A stretch of 64,000 nt of DNA from an uncultured Syntrophomonadaceae bacterium (GTDB taxonomy: Bacteria; Bacillota; Dethiobacteria; DTU022). Below, in pieces: positions 7,869 to 59,809 of this stretch. The stretch's first letter is position 1. Every line of letters starts with the position of its first letter. Below the pieces are notes generated by a model. The model was not told the DNA's origin. It made no database searches and saw only the letters and a program-made list of their open reading frames with translations. The DNA is taken from the NCBI GenBank assembly GCA_964463285.1, contig CAYXBB010000002.1, positions 3,628 through 67,627 on the forward strand. The letters are read 5' to 3'. The translations under genes were made by a program, and so were the position numbers.

Positions 7869-7967
7869 GCCTCTTCACCCCCCTTACCAGTATTATATTT
7901 CGACGAATAACATAATACTCCTGCTATTTTTGCAAACAAGTCTGACAGATTGCTTTTAAGGGCAGAT

Positions 7968-8918: not shown

Positions 8919-8960
8919 CTTTGCCGGTTGTATTACCTCCGGGAAGCCACATTTTACGCA

Positions 8961-9836: not shown

Positions 9837-9897
9837 TCAGATCACCCCTTTCAGTTCCGATGGTACCCCTGGCGCACTGCAGTTAACAGCCCGGCCT

Positions 9898-33910: not shown

Positions 33911-34086
33911 CAGATCATCCTCTGCTGCTTTACAGGGCTAGATTTTTATACCAATGCAGATTTCGCTAGTAGTTGCCGTATTGCGGCTATAAGCTTAATA
34001 CAACACTGGGAGCAGTAAAACTATTATTACTACCCCCAGCACCTTAACCCCGTTCACATTAGACAACCGCCTGCAATGCTATTCGC

Positions 34087-34911: not shown

Positions 34912-34914
34912 TTT

Positions 34915-36118: not shown

Positions 36119-36275
36119 AAAAAAAGGCAATTCCTGGAAGGGAAGTGCCATTTTTTGCAGCATTCTCCTTTCCAAGTTATGGGAGGCAATACCATTTCTA
36201 GTATTACCCTTTGGTTATACCTCGGTTACAAGCCATGCCTTCCGGTTTAGGCGCGTAACTCGGAGCGCTTTTAAT
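36119..36275 (-). promoter_or_regulatory. Structured 5' leader with intrinsic terminator upstream of the ABC-transporter operon; candidate Moco/Tuco-type riboswitch (unverified)
   Basis: Minus strand: GCGCTCCGAG ... GGTAATACtagaaatgGTATTGCCTCCC ATAACTT GGAAAGGAG ... GGCACTTCCcttccaGGAATTGCC TTTTTTT; terminator hairpin plus U7 at 36150-36119, about 130 nt before the start codon. Confidence 0.35.
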
Positions 36276-36468
36276 ATTCAGCTTTGTGTTTACGCTATCA
36301 TGGGTCAATATTTCTGTCAACACAGGGCAAGGTTTTTTTCGCCATCAAAATTAAAATCTGTTGTAAAAAAATCTTTATCATTACCCGGGGATAATCAAAC
36401 AACAAACAAGTGTTTTATTTTAACCCAGCCAAAAAACTAAAGGTCTACAGGCACTGGTTTGGGTTCGG

Positions 36469-41277: not shown

Positions 41278-42462
41278 CTATCCTCGTTTCAAATCCGAGA
41301 TCCGGTCCGTCCTTTCCCAGGGCAGATCCAGGTCAGGGCGGCCAAAATGCCCGTAAGCTGCCACCTGCCGGTAAATGGGACGGCGAAGATTGAGTTGCTC
41401 TATAATGGCCGCGGGGCGAAGATCAAACCTTTGTCGGATCAGTTCCTCAATATAGTTGTCCTTTTCCAACCCTGTCCCAGAAGTATCTACCGTTAAAGAT
41501 ACCGGTTGGGCCACCCCGATGGCGTAAGCCACCTGAAGTTGACACTTTTTAGCCAACCCGGCTGCCACAATGTTTTTAGCTACGTAGCGGGCGGCATAAG
41601 CCGCCGAGCGATCAACCTTGGTGGGATCTTTGCCCGAAAAAGCCCCTCCACCATGGGGAACATACCCACCATAGGTATCAACCATCAGCTTGCGACCGGT
41701 TAGACCGGCATCCCCCTGCGGCCCACCTATTACAAACCTCCCGGTGGGGTTAATTAAGATTCTGGTGTCCGGGGTTATCAATTCGGCGGGAACGGTTTCC
41801 AAAATAACTTGCCGGGTGATATCCTCCCGAATTGTTTCCAAATCAGTTTCGTTGGAATGTTGAGCCGAAACCACTACCGTCTCCACGCTAACCGGTCGCC
41901 CCTGTTCATAAAGCACGGTGATCTGGGTTTTGCCATCGGGGCGCAGATAATCCAGGATTTCCTGTTTGCGCACTTCGGCTAGACGCCTGGCCAGCCGGTG
42001 AGCTAAAGAGATCGGCAATGGCATCAATTCCGGGGTTTCGGTACAGGCAAACCCCATCATCATCCCCTGATCGCCCGCTCCCAACAAATTATAATGATTC
42101 TTTTCATCACCGGTTTTAGCCTCCCGGGAATGATTTACCCCCAGGGCAATATCCGGCGACTGCTCGTCTATAGAACAAAGAACTGCACAGGTATCCCCAT
42201 CGAACCCAAATTTGGCCCGGGTATAGCCGATCCGCTTTACTGTTTTCCGGACCAGATGGGGGATGTCTACATAGCAGTCAGTTGAAATTTCACCACAAAC
42301 AAATACCATGCCGGTTGTGACCATGGTCTCCGTAGCCACCCGGGCTACCGGATCCTGGCCGATAATCTCATCCAGAATTGAATCGGAAATCTGATCCGCC
42401 AGCTTATCCGGATGGCCTTCTGTAACTGATTCCGATGTGAACAGGTGCCGCCGTGATGTCAA
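41278..42462 (-). CDS. metK: S-adenosylmethionine synthetase
   Basis: 394 aa, [19 protein letters not shown] signature; TTG start with AAAGGAGG RBS. Confidence 0.95.
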
Positions 42463-42494: not shown

Positions 42495-42640
42495 AAAAAC
42501 AAAAAACCTCTTTAAAGATTGAGGCCTGAAATAGAACCTCTCATCTCCCGGAGCAGATCACTCTCCCCGCAGGAATTGGCACCGCAATCTAAGATCCGGT
42601 TGCCGGGATTCATCGGGCCCGTCCCTCCTCCACTCAGGAT
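42495..42640 (-). promoter_or_regulatory. SAM-I (S-box) riboswitch with terminator, leader of metK
   Basis: Minus strand CTCTTATCCTGAGTGGAGGAGGGACGGGCCCGATGAATCCCGGCAACC...GGTGCCAATTCCTGC...AGAGTGA matches S-box consensus; followed by hairpin and TTTTTTGTTTTTT. Confidence 0.85.
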
Positions 42641-42850
42641 AAGAGCTAAATTATAGAAATTATTAACATCAAAATACACTAAAATAATCCGGGTGTCAAA
42701 TAATAGTGAAGGAGGACCAGGCATTCCGTAAATGCCCTGTGATTAATTGTCGGCTTGGCGAATAAATATATCACGGGTGATTCCTTTCTTAAATATTTCA
42801 GTTATAAATATAGGCAGGAATTGCTAAAAATCAAATTGGAGGTGTTCTAT

Positions 42851-44085: not shown

Positions 44086-46302
44086 TCAGCATTCGCTATA
44101 GCCGCAGGCTTCGCATTTGGCGCAGCCCTCCACCCGAATCAGGGCGCCGGTGCCGCATTCCGGGCATATTTCTCGTGAATTGCAATGGTTGTTATCTTCT
44201 GCAGAATTTGCTTTTACCAGCTGAGCCAGAGCCCGTCCGATGGCATCAGGGACGCTCATGATCCGGTTGGGACCAAATCCCACCGAGCGATATCCACCGA
44301 TTCCTTCAAGCTGAGCAGTTATCTCTTCTACACCCACACCACAGCGCAGGGCCAGCGAGATTAGCCGGGCAATGGCCTCAGTAAAAGCCACCACATCGCT
44401 CCCGGCCTTGCCGATCTGGGCAAACAGCTCAAAAGGTTTTCCTGCGGCGGTATTGACCGTCACAAACAGATTCCCCAAAGGGGTCTTGATGCAGGTGGTA
44501 TGGCCGGTCAGGGTTGCGGGGCGACTGCTTGGCCGAAGGGTTTCTTCCTCTTCAACTCCCACGTTTAAAACCTGCTTTTCCCGGGATCCGTCCCGATAGA
44601 CAGTAATGCCCTTGCAACCCGTCTCCCAGGCAAGAATGTAAGCGTTTTTAACATCATCCACAGTGGCATCTCTTCTCAGATTTATAGTTTTGCTTACCGC
44701 ATTGTTCGTATATTTTTGAAAAACCGCCTGATGACGGATGTGCCACTTAGGATCGATCTCCAGGGCTGTTTTGAAAAGCGCCTTTATACGAGCCGGCACC
44801 GCCGCTTCACCAATTGGGATATATCCGCAGCAGGCAATATTGTGGATCAGCTCTTCGGAATAAAAACCCTCCCGGGAAGCTATCTCCAAAAAAAGAGGAT
44901 TTACCTCGGGCAGATCCATCCCTCCCAGGATATTTTTCCGTAAAAAAGCCAGACCAAAATAGGGTTCAATCCCGCTACTGGCTCCGGCTAGAATTGATAT
45001 GGTTCCGGTAGGAGCAATGGTGGTGCGAGTAGCGTTACGGACCCGCTCTTCCGGCCTGCCGGTATCGTAGATGCTGCCGGCAAAATTGGGAAATACCCCC
45101 CGCTCGGCAGCCAGATCCACAGAACATATTTGAGCCTCCTGGTTAATAAAGCGCATCACCTTCCCGGCAACCTCCAGAGCTGTCTCGCTATCGTACGGAA
45201 GGCCCAGGCGGACCAGCATATCGTGCCAACCCATCACCCCCAGTCCGATTTTCCTGTTGCCCTCTTTGTGCATCCGTGCGATCTCCTCGATCACGTAGCT
45301 GCTGCTATCGATGGCGTTGTCAAGAAAGCGAACGGCGCTCCGGGTTATTTCGCGCAGTTTCTCCCAATCCACCTCTCCCTCGTCTGTAACAAATTTGCCC
45401 AGGTTGAGGGAAGCCAGGCAGCAGGCCTCATAGGGCAACAGCGGCTGTTCTCCGCAGGGGTTCGTAGTTTCGTATTGGCCGATGTGGGGAGTGGGGTTAA
45501 AGCGGTTCATCTGGTCAATAAATATGATCCCCGGATCGCCTTTGCCCCATGCCTTTTCGACCATCAGGTCAAACACTTCCCCGGCATGCAGTTTCCCGAT
45601 CTCTCCCGTTTCCGGATCGATGTGCGGTTCACCGGTACGCGGATTGATCAACGTATAATAGGGATCCGGATCCTCCCCGGTTGCTTTCCGCATGAACCCA
45701 TCGGAAACGGTAACCGAAAGGTTGAAATTGGTAACCTCATCTTCTCTCTCCTTGCAGCAAATGAATTTTAGAACATCGGGATGATCGTAGCGCAGTGAGC
45801 CCATGTTTGCGCCCCGTCGGGTTCCCCCCTGTTTGACCGCCTCCGTGGCCGCGTCAAAAATTTTTAAAAAAGATAGGGGGCCGCTGGCTACCCCGTTGGT
45901 GGTGCGCACCCGGTCACCGGCGGGCCGCAACCGGTCGAAAGAAAAACCGGTGCCCCCCCCGGTCTTCTGTACCAGGGCCATATATTTCAAGGAGGTGAAA
46001 ATCCCCTCCATGCTGTCTTCCACCGGTAAAACGAAACAGGCGCTAAGCTGCTGTAGATCACGGCCGGCGTTCATCAGCGTGGGGGAATTGGGCATAAAAT
46101 AAGCCTCGGCCATTGCCTGGTAAAATTCTTCTTCTGTCCTTTTTACTTCGGCCTCATCCTTGCCGTATTCCCGTTCCACCGCAGCCATGTTTGAAGCTAC
46201 CCTTCTGAGCAGATCGACCGGTGTCTCCAGGAGATTCCCTTCGGGATCTTTTTTTAAATATCTTTTTTCATAAGTAATCCGAGCATTTTCTGTTAGCTCC
46301 AA
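44086..46302 (-). CDS. nrdJ: Adenosylcobalamin-dependent (class II) ribonucleotide reductase
   Basis: 738 aa, class II RNR catalytic core, C-terminal Cys4 zinc ribbon; TTG start. Confidence 0.9.
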   Translation of the reverse strand: MELTENARITYEKRYLKKDPEGNLLETPVDLLRRVASNMAAVEREYGKDEAEVKRTEEEFYQAMAEAYFMPNSPTLMNAGRDLQQLSACFVLPVEDSMEGIFTSLKYMALVQKTGGGTGFSFDRLRPAGDRVRTTNGVASGPLSFLKIFDAATEAVKQGGTRRGANMGSLRYDHPDVLKFICCKEREDEVTNFNLSVTVSDGFMRKATGEDPDPYYTLINPRTGEPHIDPETGEIGKLHAGEVFDLMVEKAWGKGDPGIIFIDQMNRFNPTPHIGQYETTNPCGEQPLLPYEACCLASLNLGKFVTDEGEVDWEKLREITRSAVRFLDNAIDSSSYVIEEIARMHKEGNRKIGLGVMGWHDMLVRLGLPYDSETALEVAGKVMRFINQEAQICSVDLAAERGVFPNFAGSIYDTGRPEERVRNATRTTIAPTGTISILAGASSGIEPYFGLAFLRKNILGGMDLPEVNPLFLEIASREGFYSEELIHNIACCGYIPIGEAAVPARIKALFKTALEIDPKWHIRHQAVFQKYTNNAVSKTINLRRDATVDDVKNAYILAWETGCKGITVYRDGSREKQVLNVGVEEEETLRPSSRPATLTGHTTCIKTPLGNLFVTVNTAAGKPFELFAQIGKAGSDVVAFTEAIARLISLALRCGVGVEEITAQLEGIGGYRSVGFGPNRIMSVPDAIGRALAQLVKANSAEDNNHCNSREICPECGTGALIRVEGCAKCEACGYSEC

Positions 46303-46872
46303 CGATGGTCCACCCCCGTAAAATGCTGATAAACTAAATAAAAACCAAAGAAGGTATGTTCATAATCCTAGACAGCCGATACGTTAATATTCTCTCTAAA
46401 GGGTTTCTTTCCTTCCTAAAATCGCCAATAAAAACACCCCTGTTCCGGTATAACCGGCCCTTGGATAATCCCCTGATGGAACCCGGAAAAACCTGAAAAC
46501 TTTTAAAAAAGGCCGATTTATGTCGTATCCACGAAAGGCCCTTATTTGTCACCCTGAAGGCAAAGCCAAAAAGATCTTAAAATTTTCCCGGTTCCTTATG
46601 CTCCTCTCGAATGAAAGTAAAAATTTTAATTTATCGATGGTAACCCTCCCTGAAACGAGCTGCTGCTTTTCAAAAAAAAACACGGTTATTTTGCCTACCG
46701 GTTTAAAAAGATCGAATTGCCTGGGTTTAAATTGCATTTTAAGCGCAGGGGCAAAGGGAAACAGTAAAAGATGTTGTAAACAGCCTGAAAAAAAAATAGG
46801 GTGGACGATTTACAGCATAGAAGCTGTTTTTCATATTCCCCCGACAGCACAAAAGAACCGTCCCTCCGTTTT

Positions 46873-47511
46873 TTAGGGGTCCCAGGCTTCTTGGAGGGCT
46901 GCCGTGACCTCGCTGTCGTCAACCTGACTGAAATCACGGTAAAATTGGCCCACCGCGGCGAAATGCGGGGGTGCTTCTAACCAATATATCTCATCAACCT
47001 CCCGGCCCAGGCATTCCAGAGTTTCCGGTGGCCCTACCGGAATGGCCAGGATCAATTTTAGCGGACGTTTTTGTCTGATTCCCTGCAGGGCGGCACGCAG
47101 GGTAAAACCGGTTGCCACTCCATCGTCAACCAGGATGATTAACCTACCCGTAATATCCGGAAGCGGTTTCTGCCCGCGGTAAAGCCGCAAGCGGCGCTTA
47201 ATTTCGACCTGCTCTTCTAATGATCTCCGTTCCAGATACCCCGCAGGTAAGTGCAACCTGTCCACCAGGATCTCATTGATCAGCAAGGAGCCGTTCCCGG
47301 CAACCGCACCTATAGCCAGCTCGGGCTGTCCGGGTGCACCGATTTTTCGGGTGATAATTAGATCGAGTTCTCCCCCCAGGCTTCGCCAGAGCGGTAAAGC
47401 CACAGAGACCCCGCCGCGGGGAACCGCCAGGATCAGCGGTAAAAACCCGCGGTAAGCAGATAATTTCTTGGCAAGAAGTTCTCCGGCATGCCGGCGATTT
47501 TCAAACAGCAC
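46873..47511 (-). CDS. Phosphoribosyltransferase-family protein (COG1926-like)
   Basis: 212 aa, PRTase motif LIILVDDGVATGFT. Confidence 0.6.
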   Translation of the reverse strand: MLFENRRHAGELLAKKLSAYRGFLPLILAVPRGGVSVALPLWRSLGGELDLIITRKIGAPGQPELAIGAVAGNGSLLINEILVDRLHLPAGYLERRSLEEQVEIKRRLRLYRGQKPLPDITGRLIILVDDGVATGFTLRAALQGIRQKRPLKLILAIPVGPPETLECLGREVDEIYWLEAPPHFAAVGQFYRDFSQVDDSEVTAALQEAWDP

Positions 47512-47534
47512 CGCCAGTCCCTCCCCGCAAAAAT

Positions 47535-48290
47535 TTATATCGCCAACCCTTCAAATAGCTTATCGGCGGCCTTTACCGCCGCAATCCCGGCTGACAGTTC
47601 CAAAAGCGCTTTCCCGGCAATATCATAATTCACAATCGCAGGCTCGAAGGGAATTTCCCCTAACAACTCAAGACCGGTACGGGCGATCTCCTCAGAAAGC
47701 TGCTCCACTTCCCCGGCCCGGCTGCGTGAGATCACCAGGCCCATCCGGCCTATTTCCAACCGCAGGCTACCGGCTATTTCGCGGATCCGGCCGGCAGTGC
47801 GCACGCCCCTGGCAGTGGCATCGCTGGTAATCAAGAGCAAATCGGCCTGGGGCAAGACCCGCCGGCTTATATGTTCCATTCCCGCCTCGTTATCCATGAT
47901 TAAATAATCATAGTTAACACTCAACCTCTCCAGGAAACGACGCAATAGATCATTGGGGTAACAGTAACAACCAGGGCCCTGGGGATTGCCCATCACCAGC
48001 AAATCAAAATGTTTTGTCTCCACCAGAGCTTTATTGAGATTGTATTCTATAAAAATATCCTTGGTCATCCCAACCGGAACACCACCAGGCTTTTTGGTTG
48101 TTTCCAGGATTGTGGCAATAGTTTCCTCAACAGCCAAACCAAGGGCTTCATTAAGATTTGCGTTGGCATCGGCATCCACGACCAGCATTGTTTTGTCGGG
48201 ATGCTTTTCCTGCAAATAGCGGATCAACAGGGCAGCCAGGGTGGTTTTTCCGGTGCCCCCTTTACCTGCAATAGCAATGCGTTTTGTCAT
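47535..48290 (-). CDS. cooC: CooC/AcsF-type nickel-insertion ATPase (MinD/ParA superfamily)
   Basis: 251 aa, deviant Walker A GKGGTGKTT, conserved metal-binding C-x-C (GPGCYCYP) typical of CooC. Confidence 0.75.
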   Translation of the reverse strand: MTKRIAIAGKGGTGKTTLAALLIRYLQEKHPDKTMLVVDADANANLNEALGLAVEETIATILETTKKPGGVPVGMTKDIFIEYNLNKALVETKHFDLLVMGNPQGPGCYCYPNDLLRRFLERLSVNYDYLIMDNEAGMEHISRRVLPQADLLLITSDATARGVRTAGRIREIAGSLRLEIGRMGLVISRSRAGEVEQLSEEIARTGLELLGEIPFEPAIVNYDIAGKALLELSAGIAAVKAADKLFEGLAI

Positions 48291-49645
48291 CAGATCACTG
48301 CCTCTCGATCAAAAAATAGGGTGGTGGCAAACAGCCGTCCCGCGACCGCCTTTTCCAGTTGGGCGATGGTATTGCAGGGCCACATTTCCACAAGTTCACT
48401 GAACGCTGCCACCGAGCGATGGCGGGACCACTGTTCCGGCGGCAGGGGGTTCAGCCAGATTATTTTCCGAACCCGCTCTTTCAGCCTTTGCAGCTCCGGC
48501 AAAGCCGTATCCAATTTAATCGTCCGGGTATCGCTGACCACGATTACTATCGTCCGGGAGGTGAGCAGCTCACGATAATAACCGTTAAGTTCTGCCAGGG
48601 CAGCACCGATATTGGTGCCGCCTCCCCAGGATCTTCCATGTAGAATTACGCGCCCCAGGAGCTGATCCAATCCGGACTGCTGTTCAAGAGCAGGGGTGAG
48701 ATATTCCAGGGTGTCCGCAAAGGAAAAAAGCTCCAGGTTGGATACCGCCGCCTGCAGGCCATAGATAAACTGCAGTACAAAACTACTGTAACGTTCCATG
48801 GAAGCAGAAAGATCGCCGATAAAAAGCAACTGTAGTTTTGAGCGCCGTTTCCGCCTATATTTTAGCAAAAAGGGTTGGCCACCGTGGCGCATGTTCATCC
48901 GAACCGTGCGGCGAAAATCGAGCGCCCCCCGGGACGCATCCCTTTGGCGGCGTTGCACCAACCGGCGAGCCAGCTGTTGAGAAAGTCGGTTGATCAACGC
49001 TTTGGCCGCCGGAAGGTCCGCCTGGCCGAGCATCTGCATGTCAGACTCACACAACCGCTTATCCTCTTTCCCAGCAGCCCCACAACTGCCGGCTCCTCCT
49101 GCGGCAAAATTACCTCTTGAAAAGATCTGATCCCTTCGGCTATGCCAGTAGCGCAACTGCCCTTTGACCACAGTCTCTAAAAGAGGTCTAAGGGGACGCA
49201 TTTCTTTTTCGGCTGCCTCAGTTTCTCGCACAAAACGGCACAGGCTCCGCTGCTCTTTTTCAGGCAAAGCGGTATAAAGCAGCATTTCTTCGTTAGAAAG
49301 ACACAGCGGTTCTCCCTTGAAAGAAAGCTCATCAGCAGCGCTTTTCAATCTCATTTTTTGTTCCTCCTGCTGTTGCCGGGCCTCCCGAAATTGCCGGTTC
49401 CGGGTTTCCAATGGAACAAAATATCGCTCAAAGGCCTCTTCAAAAACCTGCAAGTCGTGATAACTTTTTACCAGGGTGGCCCGAAGGGCATCTTTGAAGG
49501 CTGTACGATCGGCAATATCGATATGTTCCAGTGCCCGCAAAGCGTCCAACAATTCCGCTGTTCCCAAGGGAAGACCCTCAGCTCGCAGCAGTGCAGCAAA
49601 AATAGCCATGTTCTCTTCAAAAGAGCAATCCGCCGGTGCGGTCAT
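48290..49645 (-). CDS. VWA-domain protein, CoxE-like
   Basis: 451 aa, C-terminal VWA with MIDAS DxSxS (GDLSASM); overlaps MoxR gene by 4 nt. Confidence 0.75.
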   Translation of the reverse strand: MTAPADCSFEENMAIFAALLRAEGLPLGTAELLDALRALEHIDIADRTAFKDALRATLVKSYHDLQVFEEAFERYFVPLETRNRQFREARQQQEEQKMRLKSAADELSFKGEPLCLSNEEMLLYTALPEKEQRSLCRFVRETEAAEKEMRPLRPLLETVVKGQLRYWHSRRDQIFSRGNFAAGGAGSCGAAGKEDKRLCESDMQMLGQADLPAAKALINRLSQQLARRLVQRRQRDASRGALDFRRTVRMNMRHGGQPFLLKYRRKRRSKLQLLFIGDLSASMERYSSFVLQFIYGLQAAVSNLELFSFADTLEYLTPALEQQSGLDQLLGRVILHGRSWGGGTNIGAALAELNGYYRELLTSRTIVIVVSDTRTIKLDTALPELQRLKERVRKIIWLNPLPPEQWSRHRSVAAFSELVEMWPCNTIAQLEKAVAGRLFATTLFFDREAVI

Positions 49646-50580
49646 GGACAGGTATACTCTCCTTCCCCGTTTACGGGATTTCGCAATAACCGATCTATGC
49701 CTGTTTTTCCGATTTTTCTGTGAAACAGCAACTGGTCCTGGCGATTTTTCAACAACAGGTTAAGGGTATCGGTTACCAGTACGCCATCAAGTCTCTTCTT
49801 ACCCAAGGTCATCAAGGCCTGCGTCCAGTCAAGAGTTTCAGCAATCGAAGGTTTTTTCCGCAAATCTTCTTGGCAACGAAGATGGGCAATCACCCGGGCA
49901 ATCTCTGTGGCCAGACGTTCCCCCACCTCCGGGATCCGGGCCTGGATGATCTGGGTTTCTCTGGCGATATCCGGGAATTCGAAATACAGGTAAAGACAAC
50001 GTCGTTTCAGGCCGTCGGAAAGTTCTCGCTCGCTGTTGCTGGTTAGAACCACTACGGGGATATTTTCCGCCTTCAGCGTACCCAGTTCGGGAATTGAAAC
50101 CTGGAAATCAGAGAGGATTTCGAATAAAAAGGCTTCGAATTCGGGATCGGTTTTGTCAACCTCATCAATCAAAAGAACCACCTGACGGAGGGAGCGAATG
50201 GCTTTTAACAGGGGCCTCTCAAGCAGATAGGAGAGAGAAAATAGATCCTCTTCCCCAACTTGTGCCCCCTCAAGGCCGCGCTCAATCTGGATCCGCAATA
50301 GCTGTCGCTGGTAATTCCATTCGTAAAGTGCTTTGGTCTCATCAAGACCTTCATAACATTGCAAGCGGATCAACTCCGTCTCCAGGATCTCCGCCAGCAC
50401 CTTCCCCATTTCTGTTTTTCCCACGCCCGGAGCACCCTCAATCAATAGCGGTTTCTGTAGCCTCAGGGCCAGGAAAACGGTAAGAACGGCACTTTGATCA
50501 ATGATATATCCGCTGGCAGCAAAGCGCTGCTGCAACTCAGCCAGGTTTACCTGCACGGTTAGCCTCCCTTTTTGTAACAT
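49642..50580 (-). CDS. MoxR-family AAA+ ATPase (CoxD-like)
   Basis: 312 aa, Walker A GAPGVGKTE, Walker B LLIDEVDK, MoxR-type helix-2 insert. Confidence 0.8.
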   Translation of the reverse strand: MLQKGRLTVQVNLAELQQRFAASGYIIDQSAVLTVFLALRLQKPLLIEGAPGVGKTEMGKVLAEILETELIRLQCYEGLDETKALYEWNYQRQLLRIQIERGLEGAQVGEEDLFSLSYLLERPLLKAIRSLRQVVLLIDEVDKTDPEFEAFLFEILSDFQVSIPELGTLKAENIPVVVLTSNSERELSDGLKRRCLYLYFEFPDIARETQIIQARIPEVGERLATEIARVIAHLRCQEDLRKKPSIAETLDWTQALMTLGKKRLDGVLVTDTLNLLLKNRQDQLLFHRKIGKTGIDRLLRNPVNGEGEYTCP

Positions 50581-50857
50581 GACCTGTTCAACTTATCATA
50601 CTATAAATTTTTTTTTGCAGCAAACCCGGCCGTTCTATTCTGCCCATAGCCCGCAAACCCCGGAGGGCATTATAAGACCAGGGCCTGTTGTAGCCGCGGG
50701 AGCTGCTATTCCGATCCGGCAGGCCCCCACGCCGGGTGCTCATCAAATGATTATAAAAATCGGGGCAAGAAATGAGGCGGTAACTGTAACCTCCGAAGAA
50801 AAAACAAAGGTCGGCAATTTTTTAGATGGCTGTTGCCCATTTGAAACCTATCGTTCC

Positions 50858-51031
50858 TTAAAGCTGTTCCCGCGGGTGAGAAAGTGTACGGCGGATCTTT
50901 TCGGCGGCAATCTCTTCTTCCAGTTCTAAAATTCGGGCCAGGACCTTTGCCCGACCGGTTCCCCTGGTAATGTGGTATTCCCGCAACAGATTTTCCCGCG
51001 TTTCGTTGAGATTTACTAGCACGTCGGGCAT
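50858..51031 (-). CDS. Candidate small protein (57 aa) upstream of MoxR-VWA-CooC module
   Basis: ATG with strong RBS AAGGGGG 9 nt upstream; MPDVLVNLNETRENLLREYHITRGTGRAKVLARILELEEEIAAEKIRRTLSHPREQL; below ORF-track size cutoff. Confidence 0.3.
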   Translation of the reverse strand: MPDVLVNLNETRENLLREYHITRGTGRAKVLARILELEEEIAAEKIRRTLSHPREQL

Positions 51032-51103
51032 AAAGTAATTCCCCCTTCGATCAATTAAACTCTATTTTAAACAATTTCCAGGCAAATATGTATTTGCCCG
51101 CTC

Positions 51104-51131
51104 TTAAAAAATCCGGGGCTTCGGGCCCCGG
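51104..51131 (-). terminator. Intrinsic terminator ending the symporter transcript
   Basis: Minus strand CCGGGGCCCGAAGCCCCGG ATTTTTT. Confidence 0.65.
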
Positions 51132-51174
51132 ATTTAGGTGTACAAAGGAATCTCTTGGGGGATAAATCTGTAAA

Positions 51175-51285
51175 CTACAGCTCTTTGATTTTTTTCCTGG
51201 CTTCCTCAAAGTACCAAAAGGCAACGGCTACCGCACCGATTATGGAAATTGCCCCGAAAATATTATTTAAAACATTCCAGATCAT
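51175..51285 (-). CDS. Candidate 36-aa single-TM micro-protein translationally coupled to the symporter (ATGA overlap)
   Basis: MIWNVLNNIFGAISIIGAVAVAFWYFEEARKKIKEL; start ATG overlaps symporter TGA stop; terminator 44 nt downstream. Confidence 0.35.
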   Translation of the reverse strand: MIWNVLNNIFGAISIIGAVAVAFWYFEEARKKIKEL

Positions 51286-52834: not shown

Positions 52835-54133
52835 TTATTTTGGTTCGTTAGAGGAAGCTGAGAGCAATTTTTTCATAGCCTCCCGGTCTAGCTTACGCTT
52901 ATATTCCGACTCCATCTCCAAGAGAGCATAAGGATAACTGTATTCATCCATTAGCCGTAAATATGGCTCAGGAGCAAAAGCCTCCGGCCCGAACACCCCC
53001 CTTCCCTGCCATACCCCTTTGCCGATCAGTTCCAGGGTAATAGCCGTTCCGTATGCGGTTTGAGCCACCACTACCTGGGAACCCAAACGCTCCATGGTCT
53101 CCTGGTTATCCAGGCTCTGGTAAATAAAGACTTCCCGATGCAGCCCGTCTTTTTTACCGGTAACATGCACTCCTACGCACATTTTTCCTTTAAGCTTATC
53201 TCCGATATAGGCGGGATTTGGAGCTACCGCTTCCACCACATCCCGAGGTGATAGTTTAATCCCCTGAAAATCTATTTTTTCCTTACGATCCAAACCCAAA
53301 GCTCTCAGAACCTTCATCGCATTTATAATATCATCGCCCAGGGCAATTTTAAACGAAACTTTTTTTAGCCCTTTGTCAATATAGCGCGGCATGAGCACCA
53401 CTTCTTCATGCTCCACCTTCATTAATTTAACCGGGCCGATGCCTTCGGGAAAATAAAATATTTCCGGATCAGCAAACGGTTCCTGAACGTACCAGCCTTT
53501 TTCTCTCTCCCAGGTAACCGGAGGATTTAAAGTTTCATCGATCATGGTCCAGATTGAAAATCCAAAAGCAATTTCCAGCCCTTCGGCGGTTAGATTACCC
53601 CCATCTTTAACTGCAATCTCGTCAAGCTCGTCAAAACAATGTATCTCGGCAAACTTTGCAAACACATCCACCACGCCGGGATCAATGCCGGCTCCAATTA
53701 CCGCCATCAACCCTTTCTGCTGCCATTTGGAATCGGCCTGGAAATTGTAGGAGGCCATCAGTTCCGTATATCCCCGACCGATCGGATCTTCCGGATGAGG
53801 TTCCGACCAGGTCCCTAAATTTATATAATGACAACCCGCCTCAAAAGCAGCATCAAATAAATTTTTGGTCACAAACGGCGCCGCCGTATCCAGGATTAAA
53901 TCCACGCCATGTTTTCGGGCCAGGGCAACTACTTCTGAAATTTCTTGAGCATTAACCGGTTCCGCCGGAAATCTTTCCGGATCACCCACTTTTTGGGCTA
54001 CCTCCCCGGCTCTTTCCAGGTTGTAATCCGCCAATACCATTTTCTGTAACCAGTTACCCCTCTGATCCCGATCCCGAATTATCATGGCGATGGCTTCGCC
54101 TACCCCGCCTGTACCTACCAGCAACACTCTCAT
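52835..54133 (-). CDS. Saccharopine-dehydrogenase-like NAD(P) oxidoreductase, paralog 1
   Basis: 432 aa, N-terminal Rossmann VLLVGTGGVGEAIA, Sacchrp_dh_NADP-like plus C-terminal alpha/beta domain. Confidence 0.75.
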   Translation of the reverse strand: MRVLLVGTGGVGEAIAMIIRDRDQRGNWLQKMVLADYNLERAGEVAQKVGDPERFPAEPVNAQEISEVVALARKHGVDLILDTAAPFVTKNLFDAAFEAGCHYINLGTWSEPHPEDPIGRGYTELMASYNFQADSKWQQKGLMAVIGAGIDPGVVDVFAKFAEIHCFDELDEIAVKDGGNLTAEGLEIAFGFSIWTMIDETLNPPVTWEREKGWYVQEPFADPEIFYFPEGIGPVKLMKVEHEEVVLMPRYIDKGLKKVSFKIALGDDIINAMKVLRALGLDRKEKIDFQGIKLSPRDVVEAVAPNPAYIGDKLKGKMCVGVHVTGKKDGLHREVFIYQSLDNQETMERLGSQVVVAQTAYGTAITLELIGKGVWQGRGVFGPEAFAPEPYLRLMDEYSYPYALLEMESEYKRKLDREAMKKLLSASSNEPK

Positions 54134-54316: not shown

Positions 54317-55639
54317 TTAGTTAATAGAATCTAGCACCTCATCGGTGGAAACATCGGGAAAAGCTGATAACATTTTTTTCATAGTCCCCTGATCTTGCTT
54401 GCGCTTATACTCCGAATCCATTTCCATCAGGCGGTAAGGATATCTGTATTCATCCATGAGTTTTAAAAAAGGTTCCGGGGCAAAAGCCTCCGGCCCAAAC
54501 ACTCCCCGGTCCCGCCAGATCCCTTTGCCAACCAACTCCAGGGTAATGACCGTCCCGTAGGCAGTTTGGGCCACCACCACTTGAGAGCCCAAGCGTTCCA
54601 TGGTCTCCCGATTATCCAGGCTCTGGTAAATAAATACTTCCCGGTGCAGTCCGTCTTTTTTACCAATTACATGTACCCCTACGCACATCTTGCCTTTTAA
54701 TTTGTCTCCAATATGAGCAGGATTTGGAGCTACCGCTTCCACCACATCCCGGGGTGAAAGTTTGATCCCCTGAAAGTCTATTTTTTCTTTGCGATTAAGG
54801 CCAATGGCTCTCAGAACCTTCATGGCATTAACAATCTCATCGCCCAGAGCAATTTTAAACGTGACTTTTTTTAGCCCCTTATCTATGTATCGCGGCATGA
54901 GCACCACTTCTTCGTGTTCCACTTTCATCAGTTTAACCGGACCTATGCCTTCCGGAAAATAAAATATTTCCGGATCAGCAAACGGTTCCTGAACGTACCA
55001 GCCTTTTTCTTTTTCCCAGGTGACCGGGGGATTTAAAATCTCGCCAATCATAGTCCAGATTGAAAAACCAAAAGCAATATCCAAACCTTCGGCGGTCAGG
55101 TTCCCACCATCTTTAACTGCAATTTCCTCCAGCTCATCAAAGCAGTATATTTCAGCAAACTTGGCAAATACATCCACCACGCCGGGATCAATGCCGGCTC
55201 CGATTATTGCCATCAATCCTTTTCGTCGCCACTTAGAATCGGCCTGGAAATTGTAGGAGGCCATCAGTTCCGTATATCCCCGACCAACCGGATCTTCCGG
55301 ATGGGATTCAGACCAAGTCCCCAGGTTTATGTAATGGCAATTCGATTCAAAAGCCGCATCAAATAAATTTTTGGTCACAAACGGCGGTGCCGCATCCAGA
55401 ATCAGGTCCACATCATGCTTGCGGGCCAGGGCTGCTATTTCGGAAACCTCCCGAGCATCAACCGGTTCTGCCGGAAATCTTTCCGGCTCACCCACTTTTT
55501 GAGCTACCTGCTTAATTCTTTCCGGATTATAATCCGCCAGCACCATTTTTTGTAACCATTTGCCCCCACGATTCCGATCGCGAGCTATCATGGCGATAGC
55601 TCCGCCCACCCCGCCTGTACCTACCAGTAGCACCTTCAT
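54317..55639 (-). CDS. Saccharopine-dehydrogenase-like NAD(P) oxidoreductase, paralog 2 (tandem duplicate)
   Basis: 440 aa, about 85-90% identical to paralog 1 over full length; long identical nucleotide runs. Confidence 0.75.
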   Translation of the reverse strand: MKVLLVGTGGVGGAIAMIARDRNRGGKWLQKMVLADYNPERIKQVAQKVGEPERFPAEPVDAREVSEIAALARKHDVDLILDAAPPFVTKNLFDAAFESNCHYINLGTWSESHPEDPVGRGYTELMASYNFQADSKWRRKGLMAIIGAGIDPGVVDVFAKFAEIYCFDELEEIAVKDGGNLTAEGLDIAFGFSIWTMIGEILNPPVTWEKEKGWYVQEPFADPEIFYFPEGIGPVKLMKVEHEEVVLMPRYIDKGLKKVTFKIALGDEIVNAMKVLRAIGLNRKEKIDFQGIKLSPRDVVEAVAPNPAHIGDKLKGKMCVGVHVIGKKDGLHREVFIYQSLDNRETMERLGSQVVVAQTAYGTVITLELVGKGIWRDRGVFGPEAFAPEPFLKLMDEYRYPYRLMEMDSEYKRKQDQGTMKKMLSAFPDVSTDEVLDSIN

Positions 55640-56588: not shown

Positions 56589-57908
56589 TCAGGTTTTTAT
56601 AAATTCATCCGCCAAATTCAAACTTTCGTCTACCGCATCCATCCCCAAATTCAATTCCTGTTCATTGATGGAAATCGGCGGAGCTATAAACATGATATTC
56701 CAACGCGGATAGACATAGATGCCCTTTTCGTTCAGAAAATTATTGATCCGGCCCATAATTCCCGGATCGGGGCCATTCCAGGGAGCTATCGGCTCCTTGG
56801 TCCGGCGATCTCTTACCAGCTCTATCGCCGAGAACAGGCCGATGGAGCGCACATCGCCCACCGAGGGATGTTTTTCTTTTACATTTTCCAGCCGTTTTTT
56901 CAGCAACTGCCCCATTTTTGCAGAATTCTCGATCAGGTTCTCTTCTTCGTAAACCTGAACGGTTGCCACACCAGTGGCACAGGCCAGAGTATGGCCGCTA
57001 TAGGTTAAACCGCACCACAGCATGCGGTCGTCAAAATGATCGGCAATTTTCTCGTTAACCACTACCGCCCCCAGGGGGACATAACCCTGGGTAATCCCCT
57101 TGGCCATGGTCATAATATCGGGGATTACATTCCAGTTGTTCACCCCAAACCATTTGCCGGTTCGACCCCAACCGGTCATTACCTCGTCGGCAATCAGCAG
57201 TACACCAAATTCATCACAGATCTCCCGAATCCGAGGCAAATATTCGGGGGGCGGAACAAATATACCGTTGGTTCCGGTTACCGGCTCCACAATAAAGGCG
57301 GCTACGGATTTAGGATCTTCATACAACATAATTTCTCGAACATGCTCCGCGCACTCCAGCCCGCAGCCGGGGTAGGTGTGCCCAAAGCTACAGCGATAGC
57401 AATAAGGTTCAAACACATGGACCACCCCGGGAATCCCCGGCTCTACCGGCGGGCGGCGGGGATCGCCGGTCAGGGTAATCGCTCCAAAGGTAGCCCCGTG
57501 GTATGAGCGATAGCGGGCGAGTATTTTGAATCTTCCGGAATACAGTCGGGCAACCTTTATGGCATTATCATTAGACTCGGCTCCGCCCAGGGTAAACAGT
57601 ACTTTGTTCAAATCTCCCGGGGTGTGTTCAGCCACCTTCTGAGCCAGTCTGGCCCGGGGTTCACTGGCATAAGAAGGACTAATATAACAAAGCTTATCAG
57701 CCTGCTCCTTTATAGCTTCAATTACCCGGGGATGCTGGTGTCCGATGTTGGTATTTATTAGTTGGGATGAAAAATCCAGATATTTTTTGCCCTCCCGATT
57801 CCAGAACCAACACCCCTCACCACCTACTATCTCCTCATAAATGTTTTTGCTCTGGACAGACCACGATCTCAACACATATTTTCGTTCCAGTTCTCCGACG
57901 GAATTCAT
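56589..57908 (-). CDS. Class-III (omega) aminotransferase, PLP-dependent
   Basis: 439 aa, DEV..G.GRTG and PLP-lysine region MTMAKG; resembles amine:pyruvate / GABA-type aminotransferases; 4-nt overlap with AOR gene. Confidence 0.85.
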   Translation of the reverse strand: MNSVGELERKYVLRSWSVQSKNIYEEIVGGEGCWFWNREGKKYLDFSSQLINTNIGHQHPRVIEAIKEQADKLCYISPSYASEPRARLAQKVAEHTPGDLNKVLFTLGGAESNDNAIKVARLYSGRFKILARYRSYHGATFGAITLTGDPRRPPVEPGIPGVVHVFEPYCYRCSFGHTYPGCGLECAEHVREIMLYEDPKSVAAFIVEPVTGTNGIFVPPPEYLPRIREICDEFGVLLIADEVMTGWGRTGKWFGVNNWNVIPDIMTMAKGITQGYVPLGAVVVNEKIADHFDDRMLWCGLTYSGHTLACATGVATVQVYEEENLIENSAKMGQLLKKRLENVKEKHPSVGDVRSIGLFSAIELVRDRRTKEPIAPWNGPDPGIMGRINNFLNEKGIYVYPRWNIMFIAPPISINEQELNLGMDAVDESLNLADEFIKT

Positions 57909-59809
57909 TTCGAGCCTGCCTCCTTAAAATTTGATCGCTTTTCTGCTCCCAGCCAACCTAGTTTCAATCCCTGGAGGGTTTCCGGGCGGGGGATACCCTC
58001 CACGGTCCATCCTCTTAATCCGTAATATTCGAACAACATTTTACCCAGATGGGGCAGGCTGCCGGCAGCTGCTCCTTCCAGGCGGTCATGCACCAGCAAG
58101 CGGGGAGGCAGGGTATCATTTTTGCGGCTGATGCCTAGTTTCACGTTTATGGATCTTTTCAGGTTAAACAACCGTTCCCCGGTGTTCAGCAGTTCCTTGC
58201 CGTCTACATCCCACCCGGTTACCCTGGACAACCAGGCGGCGATTTCGTCGGGAATTACATGACCCCTGATCAAGAACTTACACAACCCCAGGGCGTTAAA
58301 TATGATCATGTAATCCTGCATGGTCTTAGCCAGCAGAGGCTTTCCCTCCATGCTATGGGGATCATATTCCGCAGGAATTCCAATCAATGTGCCCGGATAA
58401 CTTAAATTTTCATTAAAATAGGTAAGTCCCTCCAGGTGACAGGCTCCCCGGTTGCCGGTAGCATAAACAATGGCCATGCTGGTGAACGCCCGGGGATCAT
58501 GAAACGGGAATTCCAGTCCCTTGCTCTCTACAACAAATTCTGCTGCCAGTGAACCGAAGTGCGATGCCGCCCGTTTAACTCCCTCCGCCAGGTAAAAACC
58601 CAACTTTTCCCGGCGGGCTATCTGTTGTATGAGAACCAGTATTGCTTCTCCGCTTCCCCAGGACAAATCGAGCCCCCCGGTATCCACTCCCTTCAAAAGA
58701 CCATGCTCATTAAGTTCCATAGCAAACGCAACCGCATTGGCAGTGGAGATCACGTCCACTCCCAGGCGGTTACACAGGTCATGGGCGGCAATAATGAAAT
58801 TCGGGTCATCGTTTAAACAAAGTGCTCCGAATCCGGCAACGGTTTCATACTCCGGCCCGTGAGCAATGGTGCCCTGGTGAGGTCCCACCAACACTTTCAT
58901 ATCCTTGCCGCAACGGATCGGGCAGGCAAAGCAGGTCACATGTTTTACCCGCAAGCCTTTCGCCACCATGGCCTGACCGGATACTCTTGCCGCTCCTTCC
59001 TCCCAGCTGCCGCCGGTCCAGTTGCGAATAGGAAGATCACCCAGTTTTTCCACCGCCACCACCCCGCCGGCGGTCCCAAAATCGGTAAGTCCCCTGGCTT
59101 TTTCTCTGATTTTAGACAGAGATTCTCTCCTGGCTTCAGCCAGGCCCCGGCTGTCGAAAATAGCCGGTACCGGACCGGAAGGAAGCACGGCGATCGCCTT
59201 TAAATTCTTGGAACCCATTACTGCGCCCAGACCGCAGCGGCCGGCAGCCCGGGAATCCTTTCCGTCAATAATGATGGAAGCAATCAGCACCCGGTTTTCC
59301 CCGGCTGGGCCGATAGCAGCGGTATTTATCTTTTCCCCCAGTTCCTGTTGAATTTTCTCCTGCGTGCGGTAAGTGTCCTCTCCCCAAAGAGCGGTAGCAT
59401 CTTTAAATTCCAGCCCCTGTTCCCCGAAGTAAAGGTAAACCGGGCGATCCGCCTTGCCGGTAATGATCAGGCCATCGTAGCCGACAGCCTTAAAATCCGC
59501 CGGCCACCGCCCCCCTACAATGGCCTCCGCCCATATCCCGGTAGCCGGGGATTTCCCACAAAACGCTGCCTTGCTGGCTGCAGGTACATTTAATCCGGTC
59601 AGAATCCCTGAAAAGACCAGTAGTGCTGCCTGTTCACTTAAAGGATCCGGTTCGTAATAACCCCGTTCATAAAACAGCTTGGCAGATAAACCGCTGCCTC
59701 CCAGGTAATCCCGGTAATCCTGTTCTGGAATAATTGTTTCAGTTACCTCACGAGAGGTTAAATTAATTTCCAGGATTTTTCCATAATATCCATATCCCAT
59801 AGCCCTCAC
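57905..59809 (-). CDS. aor: Tungsten-containing aldehyde:ferredoxin oxidoreductase (AOR family)
   Basis: 634 aa, AOR N-terminal domain and [4Fe-4S] Cys motif region; AAGGAG RBS. Confidence 0.9.
   Translation of the reverse strand: MRAMGYGYYGKILEINLTSREVTETIIPEQDYRDYLGGSGLSAKLFYERGYYEPDPLSEQAALLVFSGILTGLNVPAASKAAFCGKSPATGIWAEAIVGGRWPADFKAVGYDGLIITGKADRPVYLYFGEQGLEFKDATALWGEDTYRTQEKIQQELGEKINTAAIGPAGENRVLIASIIIDGKDSRAAGRCGLGAVMGSKNLKAIAVLPSGPVPAIFDSRGLAEARRESLSKIREKARGLTDFGTAGGVVAVEKLGDLPIRNWTGGSWEEGAARVSGQAMVAKGLRVKHVTCFACPIRCGKDMKVLVGPHQGTIAHGPEYETVAGFGALCLNDDPNFIIAAHDLCNRLGVDVISTANAVAFAMELNEHGLLKGVDTGGLDLSWGSGEAILVLIQQIARREKLGFYLAEGVKRAASHFGSLAAEFVVESKGLEFPFHDPRAFTSMAIVYATGNRGACHLEGLTYFNENLSYPGTLIGIPAEYDPHSMEGKPLLAKTMQDYMIIFNALGLCKFLIRGHVIPDEIAAWLSRVTGWDVDGKELLNTGERLFNLKRSINVKLGISRKNDTLPPRLLVHDRLEGAAAGSLPHLGKMLFEYYGLRGWTVEGIPRPETLQGLKLGWLGAEKRSNFKEAGSK

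Follow-up and report, generated by a model that had tools for sequence, protein, structure and literature searches.

Organization of the locus

The window, the whole stretch of 64,000 nucleotides that was analysed, contains five ORFs on its minus strand, at the same positions as in a first-pass annotation. From 5' to 3' these are a small ORF (50858-51031, 57 amino acids), a CoxD-like MoxR AAA+ ATPase (49642-50556, 304 amino acids), a CoxE-like VWA protein (48290-49645, 451 amino acids), an AcsF-type ATPase of the MinD/ParA family (47535-48290, 251 amino acids) and a phosphoribosyltransferase (PRTase)-fold protein of the TT1426 family (46873-47511, 212 amino acids). That annotation had named a CoxD-like MoxR, a CoxE-like VWA protein with a MIDAS, a CooC-family CxC ATPase, a PRTase and a real small ORF in tight or overlapping arrangement, and Pfam matches, motifs and pN/pS values bear these identities out. 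The packing is equally as described: the VWA start lies inside the MoxR stop (ATGA, an overlap of 4 nt), the AcsF start falls on the VWA stop (TGATG, an overlap of 1 nt) and 23 nt separate AcsF from the PRTase gene. Because these stop and start codons overlap, MoxR, VWA and AcsF are translationally coupled. The surroundings of the module are housekeeping genes (fabZ-metK-recD2).

The longest MoxR ORF opens at ATG 50580; the true start is probably GTG 50556, behind a AAGGGAGG ribosome-binding site. The MoxR gene call on an identical Logan contig has the same 304 amino acids, and the MoxR relatives start at the same place. Upstream of it, a sigma-70 promoter of the MoxR-VWA-AcsF(-PRTase) operon probably lies at 50595-50623 on the minus strand (-35 TTGCTG at 50618-50623, a 17-nt spacer, -10 TATGAT at 50595-50600), and the block gTTTGCc...TATAGTATGAT is the sole strongly conserved stretch of the spacer between the small ORF and MoxR across six relatives. 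The consensus promoter scan missed this promoter because its -35 fits at only three of six positions. The locus is bounded by an intrinsic terminator-like hairpin (51106-51131, minus strand; CCGGGGC-CCGAA-GCCCCGG plus a T-run), read directly from the sequence, which closes the upstream symporter unit; the terminator scan gave a weaker hairpin at 51079-51100 in its place.

The small ORF has pN/pS values of 0.11-0.34 across six relatives, at near-saturated synonymous sites; it matched no Pfam, NCBIfam or PADLOC family, and just 10 close homologues were found. A conserved element of its own precedes it (about 51060-51080), in three relatives (L010, L011, L013) a terminator of its own follows, and it is apparently a neighbour in a separate transcription unit. 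The PRTase matches Pfam Pribosyltran, carries the PRPP loop VDDGVATG (47107-47130) and aligns over its full length with Thermus TT1426 (PDB 1WD5, 'hypothetical protein', E=1e-45), whose family is widespread. Although it is probably co-transcribed with MoxR-VWA-AcsF, and 16 of 21 related loci have it directly 3' of AcsF, the module lacks it in the other 5 and no acs-cluster locus contains it; its membership of the system is doubtful. Both genes, which had been noted on either side of the trio, are indeed present, but probably neither is integral to the system.

The metal-binding ATPase

The ATPase matches CbiA and AAA_31 in Pfam and carries a deviant Walker A motif, GKGGTGKT (48243-48266), and the metal motif GPGCYCYPND, in which Cys108 and Cys110 (47961-47969) form the CxC. 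Its best solved match in a PDB search was CooC1 (3KJE, E=2e-18), and the CxC survives this realignment, CYC standing against the CYC of CooC1. The initial call of a CooC-type Ni insertase thus stands at the level of the family, but within it the protein falls in the AcsF clade and not with CooC proper. It shares 56% identity with the AcsF of Neomoorella carbonis and 30% with the CooC encoded in that acs cluster. In a neighbour-joining tree of 104 sequences, built without bootstrap, the window ATPase and its relatives occupy a short branch nested among the genes located between RACo/acsC and acsD, a clade distinct from the cooC paralogues and CooC1. This position between RACo or acsC and acsD is that of the AcsF gene in about 45 homologous loci. 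The GCYCYPND motif is common to the window ATPase and the acs-cluster AcsF proteins, and all motifs are invariant within the short sub-branch of the module. On sequence grounds the protein is therefore taken as an AcsF orthologue, which presumably inserts Ni into acetyl-CoA synthase (ACS); its clade points to ACS as the likely client, in place of Ni-CODH as such or the W/Mo-pterin enzymes. No second AcsF-clade gene from any carrier assembly appeared among the best 80 matches, so, as far as these incomplete MAGs go, the module copy looks like the sole AcsF of the carrier genomes.

The same machinery might instead serve the Ni-CODH subunit (the C-cluster of AcsA/CooS) or the assembled CODH/ACS complex, and not the ACS A-cluster specifically. 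Its fold and CxC motif are common to CooC1, the insertase of the CODH C-cluster; in one metagenome contig (L097) the part of the acs cluster closest to MoxR-VWA is DUF3786-cooC-acsA, with the pair five genes 5' of it; and the nearest AAA+/VWA relatives that have been characterised, CoxD/CoxE, act on a CO dehydrogenase, though a Mo-Cu one. We consider this unlikely, given the identities and clade just described, the separate cooC that canonical clusters carry adjoining acsA, and the reported action of AcsF on ACS (Gregg et al. 2016, J Biol Chem 291:18129, cited as reference 87 of PMC10134865).

The MoxR-VWA pair and its linkage to acs genes

MoxR matches AAA_5 and AAA_3 in Pfam, with Walker A GAPGVGKTE at 50410-50436 and Walker B LLIDEVDK at 50152-50175. 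The VWA protein matches VWA_CoxE (PF05762, E=4e-45), and its MIDAS residues, DLSAS (48800-48814), GGGTN (48611-48625) and VSDT (48527-48541), do not vary when it is aligned with orthologues from acs-linked loci. The pair belongs to the CoxD/CoxE family. MoxR shares 57-59% identity with the MoxR genes that end acs operons (L066, L067) and about 50% with those beside CoxS/L/M-type Mo hydroxylases, and in a neighbour-joining tree without bootstrap the AcsF- or acs-linked MoxRs group together, separate from the Mo-hydroxylase-linked CoxD-type MoxRs. Searches against PDB sequences found no solved homologue of the VWA protein, and neither NorQ/NorD nor CbbQ/CbbO was among the matches of the pair.

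VWA lies directly 5' of an AcsF-type gene in 16 of the 18 related genome loci having enough upstream DNA, so chance does not account for the arrangement. The full order MoxR-VWA-AcsF is found in 16 of 18 Dethiobacteria-type loci and in a metagenome locus (L091), and inside Dethiobacteria its conservation could partly be inherited synteny. Orthologues of the pair close complete acs operons in two genomes, one reading cooC-acsA-acsB-acsC-RACo-acsF-acsD-acsE-FNT-MoxR-VWA (L067, confirmed with Pfam) and the other acsD-acsE-MoxR-VWA (L066), and in three further loci (L046, L048, L058) AcsF is followed by MoxR-VWA. The pair occurs within 3.2 kb in 5 of 56 non-Dethiobacteria AcsF loci, against some 0.7% expected from one copy per 3-Mb genome by our own rough estimate, and its adjacency to AcsF takes at least four gene orders, in Dethiobacteria, a Ruminiclostridium MAG, Acididesulfobacillus, a Thermacetogenium MAG and other Clostridia. 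That the three genes are repeatedly linked to one another and to acs genes is directly supported, as are the protein identities, the intact motifs and the translational coupling. Two loci (L017, L038) have an AcsF-like gene without MoxR-VWA upstream and about 45 of 50 acs clusters lack the pair nearby, indicating that MoxR-VWA is dispensable or lineage-specific.

Pfam scans of another 30 large ORFs from the window showed housekeeping and catabolic genes only, with no CODH/ACS, hydrogenase or urease, in agreement with the first-pass annotation, and Mo hydroxylase genes were found neither in the window nor in the 10-kb flanks of its relatives. With 13 kb between it and the nearer window edge, the module is not the edge of a cooS-cooC cluster. 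It had also been regarded as a self-contained unit with no adjacent client, but its relatives show that it is not an orphan. MAG B1Sed10_67 (PUKV01), which holds a MoxR-VWA-AcsF locus (L022), is positive for acsA, acsB, acsC, acsD and acsE (PMC6146748, supplementary file 9); acsA-E are also present in bin R2.15 of GTDB species JAAZPQ01 sp012797175 (PMC11932165, Table S3), whose representative is, by species name, the assembly holding L011; and orthologous pairs lie in or beside acs clusters. From these relatives we infer that the window's own genome encodes acsB. The earlier idea of metallocentre maturation for a distant client fits this evidence, with ACS as the likely client in place of those then proposed.

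An AcsF paralogue and its AAA+/VWA partners could, once out of the acs operon, have been recruited to another metalloenzyme, maybe with the PRTase as a partner. The module sits amid housekeeping genes far from any client, its proteins form their own sub-branch and in those 16 of 21 loci the PRTase follows closely in the same orientation; we nevertheless judge such recruitment quite improbable, since the sub-branch is short with every motif invariant, the best 80 matches included no second AcsF from carrier genomes, acsA-E are on record in published tables for one carrier MAG and the species of another, and orthologous pairs are embedded in acs operons. The PRTase, moreover, is missing from the module in five loci and its family is also present in Thermus, where we know of no ACS. 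Functional independence of MoxR-VWA and AcsF, the pair acting on some other substrate and the adjacency being a historical accident fixed in one lineage, is very unlikely: although homologues of about 50% identity mostly adjoin CoxS/L/M-type Mo hydroxylases or stand in unrelated contexts, and most acs clusters do without the pair, the adjacency recurs in different gene orders and unrelated lineages, start and stop codons overlap, Mo hydroxylase genes are absent from the window and the relatives' 10-kb flanks, and the acs-linked MoxRs are a cluster of their own. Some defence systems contain PRTase domains. Ternary conflict systems based on MoxR-VWA are on record (PMC7159879), but a conflict or defence system with a PRTase effector is effectively refuted here by PADLOC matches at the P-loop level only, by a locus that is core, syntenic and highly conserved (63-86% identity over hundreds of clusters) and shows no anomaly in its composition profile, and by a third gene that is a metal-binding AcsF.

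A putative nickel-insertion unit among known systems

The best reading is a nickel-insertion unit for ACS that has been displaced, with the AAA+/VWA pair as helper of AcsF. As an association drawn from gene neighbourhood, it is reasonably probable that maturation, and possibly repair, of the Ni,Ni-[4Fe4S] A-cluster is the task of the three coupled genes, the AcsB concerned being encoded elsewhere in the genome; we infer both this client and every biochemical step. By analogy with CooC1 and biochemically studied AcsF, AcsF would work as an ATP-dependent homodimer whose CxC cysteines carry Ni(II) at the dimer interface until it is passed to apo-ACS. The VWA protein, being CoxE-like, would dock on the folded client via its MIDAS, and the CoxD-like MoxR hexamer may open or remodel that client at the expense of ATP, giving access to a buried, easily mis-metallated proximal metal site. 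Remodelling has been proposed for CoxD/CoxE on Mo-Cu CODH (PMC3471820, PMC4240915) and for NorQ/NorD in FeB insertion into NO reductase (PMC9976466, PMC13036017). In the GTDB class Dethiobacteria and relatives, acsF would have left the acs operon and joined the AAA+/VWA pair in one operon. No paper tying such a pair to AcsF was found in the literature searched, and the locus suggests that some acetogen-type bacteria have an ATP-driven remodelling machine, undescribed in that literature, that loads nickel into acetyl-CoA synthase.

TT1426 of Thermus thermophilus (PDB 1WD5), a predicted PRTase, resembles the window PRTase over its full length, with a conserved PRPP loop, but only the latter sits 3' of AcsF. 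The best NCBIfam matches of MoxR and of the VWA protein are MadB (NF047784; 260 bits against a cut-off of 475) and MadC (NF047783; 127 bits against 600), both far below threshold, and since Mo-hydroxylase-linked and acs-linked homologues score alike, the window proteins belong to a sibling family. NorQ/NorD and the Rubisco activase CbbQ/CbbO (PMC4660213) share the logic of a MoxR hexamer and a VWA-MIDAS adaptor remodelling a folded client for metal insertion or inhibitor release, but they are distant in sequence and have no dedicated metal-binding NTPase in their operons. CooC1 of Carboxydothermus hydrogenoformans (PDB 3KJE), the Ni-binding ATPase of the CODH C-cluster, shares the MinD-type fold family and an aligned CxC, whereas the window ATPase is about 30% identical to CooC-type proteins, belongs to a separate clade and does not adjoin cooS. 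AcsF from Moorella and Carboxydothermus acs clusters is of the same clade and size (about 250 amino acids) and has the same GKGGTGKT, GCYCYPND and DxEAGxEH switch motifs; unlike it, the window copy lies outside an acs operon, coupled to MoxR-VWA and followed by the PRTase. Finally, the AAA+/VWA pair that serves to assemble the [CuSMoO2] cluster of aerobic CODH, CoxD/CoxE in Oligotropha carboxidovorans and its relatives (PMC3471820, PMC4240915), resembles the window pair in its VWA_CoxE domain with an intact MIDAS, in about 50% identity between the window MoxR and MoxRs encoded after CoxS/CoxL/CoxM-type genes, and in its overlapping two-gene layout. The window pair differs in having no Mo hydroxylase nearby and no CoxF/CoxG counterparts seen, in a MoxR that falls in a separate cluster of anaerobe, acs-linked sequences, and in its partner, a Ni-binding P-loop ATPase.

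Gene layout of the module and its neighbourhood

Five minus-strand ORFs, all in the same orientation, lie at the locus: a small ORF of 57 aa (50858-51031), a MoxR-class AAA+ ATPase (49642-50580 as the longest ORF; Pfam AAA_5 and AAA_3), a VWA protein (48290-49645; VWA_CoxE, E=4e-45), a MinD/ParA-type ATPase of 251 aa (47535-48290; CbiA and AAA_31) and a phosphoribosyltransferase (PRTase)-fold protein of 212 aa (46873-47511; Pribosyltran). The most likely MoxR start is the GTG at 50556, preceded by a AAGGGAGG ribosome-binding site; the gene call on an identical Logan contig gives a MoxR of 304 aa, and homologues start at the same place. The MoxR stop and the VWA start overlap by 4 nt and the VWA stop and the ATPase start by 1 nt, so that these three genes are translationally coupled; 23 nt separate the ATPase gene from the PRTase gene. 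Walker A and Walker B are intact in MoxR, as is the MIDAS of the VWA protein (DLSAS, GGGTN and VSDT, in the DxSxS...T...D pattern), and the ATPase carries the deviant Walker A GKGGTGKT (pattern GKGGxGK[ST], residues 9-16), which is invariant in the family alignment. The five-gene arrangement described by the first-pass annotation is therefore real, since ORFs, families and catalytic motifs, the latter all intact, check out.

The MoxR operon has its own conserved promoter-like block (TTGCTG, 17 nt, TATGAT; 50595-50623), and the 276-nt spacer before MoxR is otherwise unconserved. Rfam gave no RNA element in or beside the module, and a riboswitch or leader in this spacer was rejected because the search was empty both at gathering thresholds and at E up to 1. 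The 570-nt gap between the PRTase gene and a class II ribonucleotide reductase gene (46303-46872; nrdJ-like gene at 44086-46302) likewise had no Rfam match at E up to 1.

The small ORF of 57 aa is a genuine gene, with a pN/pS of 0.11-0.34 at near-saturated synonymous sites, its own conserved upstream element and, in three relatives, its own intrinsic terminator. Only ten close homologues were found and neither Pfam nor NCBIfam assigns it to a family; a resemblance to Spo0E-like proteins was unconfirmed, with nothing credible in Pfam at E up to 10, and we found no evidence tying this gene functionally to the module. Between the symporter gene and the small ORF are two hairpins (51079-51131), of which one is a strong GC-rich terminator; another 57-aa ORF on the minus strand (51051-51224) spans both and is probably not a gene. 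At the other end of the module, the PRTase matches Thermus thermophilus TT1426 over its full length (PDB 1WD5, deposited as "hypothetical protein TT1426"; E=1e-45, residues 1-208) and has the PRPP-binding loop VDDGVATG. Its gene follows that of the ATPase in 16 of 21 loci, is absent from the other five and never occurs in acs clusters. We know of no function assigned to the TT1426 family and of no ACS in Thermus. The PRTase is a probable passenger of the operon, and a functional tie to the module is unlikely.

According to Pfam scans of 30 further ORFs, the window belongs to the core of the chromosome. To one side of the module it has eno-pgm-tpi-pgk, rpoN, whiA, uvrCAB, ftsX, ilvC, transketolase, prfB, secA, hpf, a comFC-like gene, recD2, fabZ and nrdJ, together with an ABC transporter preceded by a Moco riboswitch and metK preceded by a SAM riboswitch; to the other side are genes for a Na+/solute symporter, two paralogues resembling saccharopine dehydrogenase, an aminotransferase, an aldehyde:ferredoxin oxidoreductase and a sigma-54 activator. 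These scans detected no CODH/ACS, hydrogenase or urease in the 64-kb window, in agreement with the first-pass annotation, which had seen no client enzyme there. The nearer window edge is 13 kb away from the module, which is therefore not the margin of a cooS cluster.

Among the flanking features, the SAM (S-box) riboswitch (42538-42645, minus strand) lies directly upstream of metK (41278-42462). The operon for a FecCD/Peripla_BP_2-type ABC transporter (32100-35988, minus strand), which includes a SAM-methyltransferase gene, follows the Moco/tungsten riboswitch (36149-36277, minus strand; 65 bits) in a region with a GC content of 0.39-0.43 against about 0.50-0.55 across most of the window; the usual cargo of this riboswitch is modABC or tupABC, which makes an operon of this type unusual. 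The tandem saccharopine-dehydrogenase-like paralogues (52835-54133 and 54317-55639, minus strand) are 87% identical and are flanked by the symporter on one side and by the aminotransferase, oxidoreductase and activator genes on the other, possibly forming a sigma-54-controlled cluster for amino-acid or polyamine catabolism.

Identity of the ATPase and of the MoxR-VWA pair

The ATPase family is tightly conserved, with each of the 120 matches listed at least 63% identical to the window protein and nearly all of exactly 251 aa, and a mean column identity of 81% in a 15-member alignment. Within its GPGCYCYPND segment, C108-Y-C110 aligns with the CYC of CooC1 (PDB 3KJE, E=2e-18), which upholds the CxC motif reported in the first-pass annotation; GCYCYPND is invariant in 15 relatives and common to the AcsF proteins of acs clusters. 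Using the family patterns GCYCYPND and A[VI]AGKGGTG, we scanned one genome per GTDB species and found that at least 573 species carry a homologue. The best 80 loci from these species were annotated by BLAST against reference genes from one complete acs locus (L067), where Pfam had confirmed DUF3786, cooC, acsA/Prismane, acsB/CdhC, acsC, RACo, the homologue, acsD and acsE.

Two context classes emerged among these 80 loci. In the first, of about 45 loci (Neomoorella, Desulfosporosinus, Desulfitobacterium, Sporomusa, Desulfofundulus and others), a homologue 45-57% identical to the window ATPase occupies the acsF position of a canonical acs cluster, with RACo or acsC on one side and acsD on the other, and these clusters also hold a second, approximately 30% identical paralogue, the cooC at the cluster head. 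The second class comprises 24 loci with a homologue of 56-82% identity that adjoins fabZ-metK-recD2 as in the window. In a neighbour-joining (NJ) tree of 104 sequences, built without bootstrap, the window ATPase and its relatives form a short branch within the AcsF clade, apart from the cooC paralogues and CooC1, and against Neomoorella carbonis the window ATPase is 56% identical to AcsF and 30% to CooC. NCBIfam has no model for either protein. The ATPase is thus very probably an AcsF-clade protein, and AcsF is reported to act as the ATP-dependent Ni insertase of acetyl-CoA synthase (Gregg et al. 2016, as cited in PMC10134865). The ATPase, called CooC-type in the first-pass annotation, does not group with CooC proper: it falls in a separate clade and is 30% identical, and the window has no cooS. 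A CODH variant of the maturation role, in whose favour the CYC match to CooC1 could be read, is unlikely.

Regarding the MoxR-VWA pair, the VWA protein matches PF05762 with 154 bits against a cut-off of 26. A metagenome scan with the MoxR alignment returned mostly CoxD-type homologues of about 50% identity, from soils and sediments and from soil Mo-hydroxylase clusters, indicating a broad MoxR subfamily. In many of these loci the pair comes after ORFs of about 160, 790 and 285 aa, which in one of them (L157) were confirmed by Pfam as CoxS-, CoxL- and CoxM-type subunits of a molybdenum hydroxylase. Because its homologues follow such genes, the window pair truly belongs in the CoxD/CoxE family, which the first-pass annotation had guessed and which the PF05762 match and the MIDAS also indicate.

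Linkage of the pair to AcsF and to acs genes

The MoxR-VWA-AcsF order was found in 16 of the 18 Dethiobacteria-type loci with enough upstream DNA and in one metagenome locus (L091). Outside this group the pair stands at the end of a complete acs operon in L067 (...acsF-acsD-acsE-FNT-MoxR-VWA) and L066 (acsD-acsE-MoxR-VWA), follows AcsF in Acididesulfobacillus acetoxydans (L048), a Thermacetogenium MAG (L058) and a Clostridia MAG (L046), and lies five genes upstream of DUF3786-cooC-acsA in metagenome locus L097; L091 and L097 were the only acs-linked cases that the metagenome scan added. Overall, among 56 AcsF loci that do not belong to the Dethiobacteria-type group, 5 have the pair within 3.2 kb, compared with a roughly estimated chance expectation below 1% for a pair present once per 3-Mb genome. 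MoxRs from the window and from acs-linked loci are 57-59% identical and MIDAS residues are invariant in the alignments, and on sequence comparison the pairs are clearly orthologous. In a MoxR NJ tree, also without bootstrap, AcsF- and acs-linked MoxRs group together, away from homologues with Mo-hydroxylase neighbours (L157 and others), which fall on other branches.

Some loci depart from this arrangement. In two of them, L017 (about 1-10000) and L038 (1-2975), the AcsF-like gene sits in the fabZ/metK neighbourhood with no MoxR-VWA upstream, L017 keeping the PRTase gene, so the pair can evidently be lost or moved. In L046 (10944-13474), the AcsF-like gene and MoxR-VWA are separated by two genes, one for a NarI/DsrM-like membrane protein and one for a DsrK/HdrD-like Fe-S protein. 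Metagenome loci L093, L096 and L098 have MoxR-VWA but, in the flanks retrieved, neither acs nor Mo-hydroxylase genes; in the tree, which covers L096 and L098, these two fall with the acs-linked MoxRs, and L093, from a human gut metagenome, has only its VWA gene called.

No acs genes lie in the 64-kb window or within 10 kb in the 24 related loci, and we turned to published inventories of the carrier genomes. One carrier contig (L022, PUKV01000171.1), with MoxR-VWA-AcsF, is part of the MAG "Syntrophomonadaceae bacterium B1Sed10_67" (PUKV00000000), which scored positive for acsA/cooS, acsB, acsE, acsD and acsC (PMC6146748, supplementary file 9), and the main text of that study states that these Dethiobacter-related populations encode a full CODH/ACS. 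A second carrier (L011, JAAZPQ010000102.1), whose AcsF, MoxR and VWA are 76%, 78% and 74% identical to those of the window, comes, by its name, from the assembly that represents GTDB species JAAZPQ01 sp012797175 (order DTU022 of class Dethiobacteria), and bin R2.15, assigned to this species, has acsA, acsB, acsC, acsD and acsE (PMC11932165, Table S3). Published presence of acsA-E therefore covers one carrier MAG and the species of another carrier. As no second AcsF-clade gene from any carrier assembly occurs among the best 80 loci of the at least 573 species, the module copy appears to be the only AcsF in these genomes, with the reservation that MAGs are incomplete. A search with the AcsB of L042, from a non-carrier lineage, returned none named as Dethiobacteria among the best 120 matches listed, which does not count against acsB in the carriers. 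Separately, the ORFs upstream of the module in L006-L008, L017 and L020 include members of the Dimeth_Pyl and MttB families that are split, as in-frame pyrrolysine codons would explain, and in L006-L008 and L020 metK and recD2 have a Pterin_bind (AcsE-like) gene between them; together these genes point to methylamine-using, corrinoid-dependent metabolism in those carriers.

Proposed role in ACS maturation and comparison with known systems

The key enzyme of the Wood-Ljungdahl pathway, acetyl-CoA synthase, has an A-cluster that is difficult to load with the right metal, since Zn or Cu readily enters the proximal site, and this difficulty limits the heterologous production of active ACS for gas fermentation. 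To our knowledge, AcsF is the sole dedicated ACS maturation factor so far described. With the identities of the proteins, their intact motifs, the coupling of the three genes and their recurrent linkage to each other and to acs genes, the unit is likely to serve the maturation of ACS or CODH/ACS. An AcsF dimer would bind Ni through the CxC cysteines and, driven by ATP hydrolysis, deliver it to the A-cluster of AcsB; the CoxE-like VWA protein would dock through its MIDAS onto folded ACS, and the CoxD-like AAA+ hexamer would remodel ACS so that the proximal metal site is loaded, or cleared of Zn or Cu. A more specific version, which we consider plausible, is that the CoxD/CoxE-type machine is a so far unrecognised accessory of ACS biogenesis, opening folded ACS for AcsF to load the labile proximal Ni of the A-cluster or, after mis-metallation, to exchange it. 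The same type of machine would then act on the aerobic Mo-Cu CODH and on the anaerobic Ni complex, and in Dethiobacteria the three proteins would form one stoichiometric unit encoded apart from the enzyme.

Two other readings were rejected. A W/Mo-pterin client, raised by the first-pass annotation, could be suggested by the aldehyde:ferredoxin oxidoreductase gene (57905-59809) and the Moco riboswitch in the window, but neither is kept beside the module in relatives. A defence system found no backing in PADLOC, where the matches were short, confined to P-loops and no stronger than E=1e-6.

The proposed maturation of ACS follows a pattern put forward for CoxD/CoxE (PMC3471820, PMC4240915), NorQ/NorD (PMC9976466, PMC13036017) and CbbQ/CbbO (PMC4660213). 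CoxD and CoxE adjoin a CoxS/CoxL/CoxM-type Mo hydroxylase together with CoxF and CoxG, whereas the window pair does not, and none of these genes occurs in the window or in the flanks of its relatives. The closest NCBIfam models are MadB (260 bits, cut-off 475) and MadC (127 bits, cut-off 600); the window MoxR and VWA thus score below both equivalog cut-offs, and Mo-linked and acs-linked homologues score alike. A literature search on what "Mad" denotes in these names returned nothing relevant, and another found no paper linking a MoxR or VWA protein with AcsF or with Wood-Ljungdahl enzymes.

Should the AAA+/VWA pair help with the loading of Ni or with its repair, a testable component would be added to ACS maturation, the MoxR-VWA mode of metal insertion into a folded client (CoxDE, NorQD) would extend to a nickel enzyme, and annotators would have reason to drop the labels "AAA family ATPase" and "CO dehydrogenase maturation factor". 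The finding is directly testable and relevant to the production of active ACS, and it extends an established maturation logic rather than introducing a new principle. AcsF and CoxD/CoxE are each already known, and canonical acsF lies in the acs cluster, whereas here AcsF stands outside any such cluster; what is new is an AcsF that shares one operon with a CoxD/CoxE-type pair and has moved out of the operon of the enzyme.
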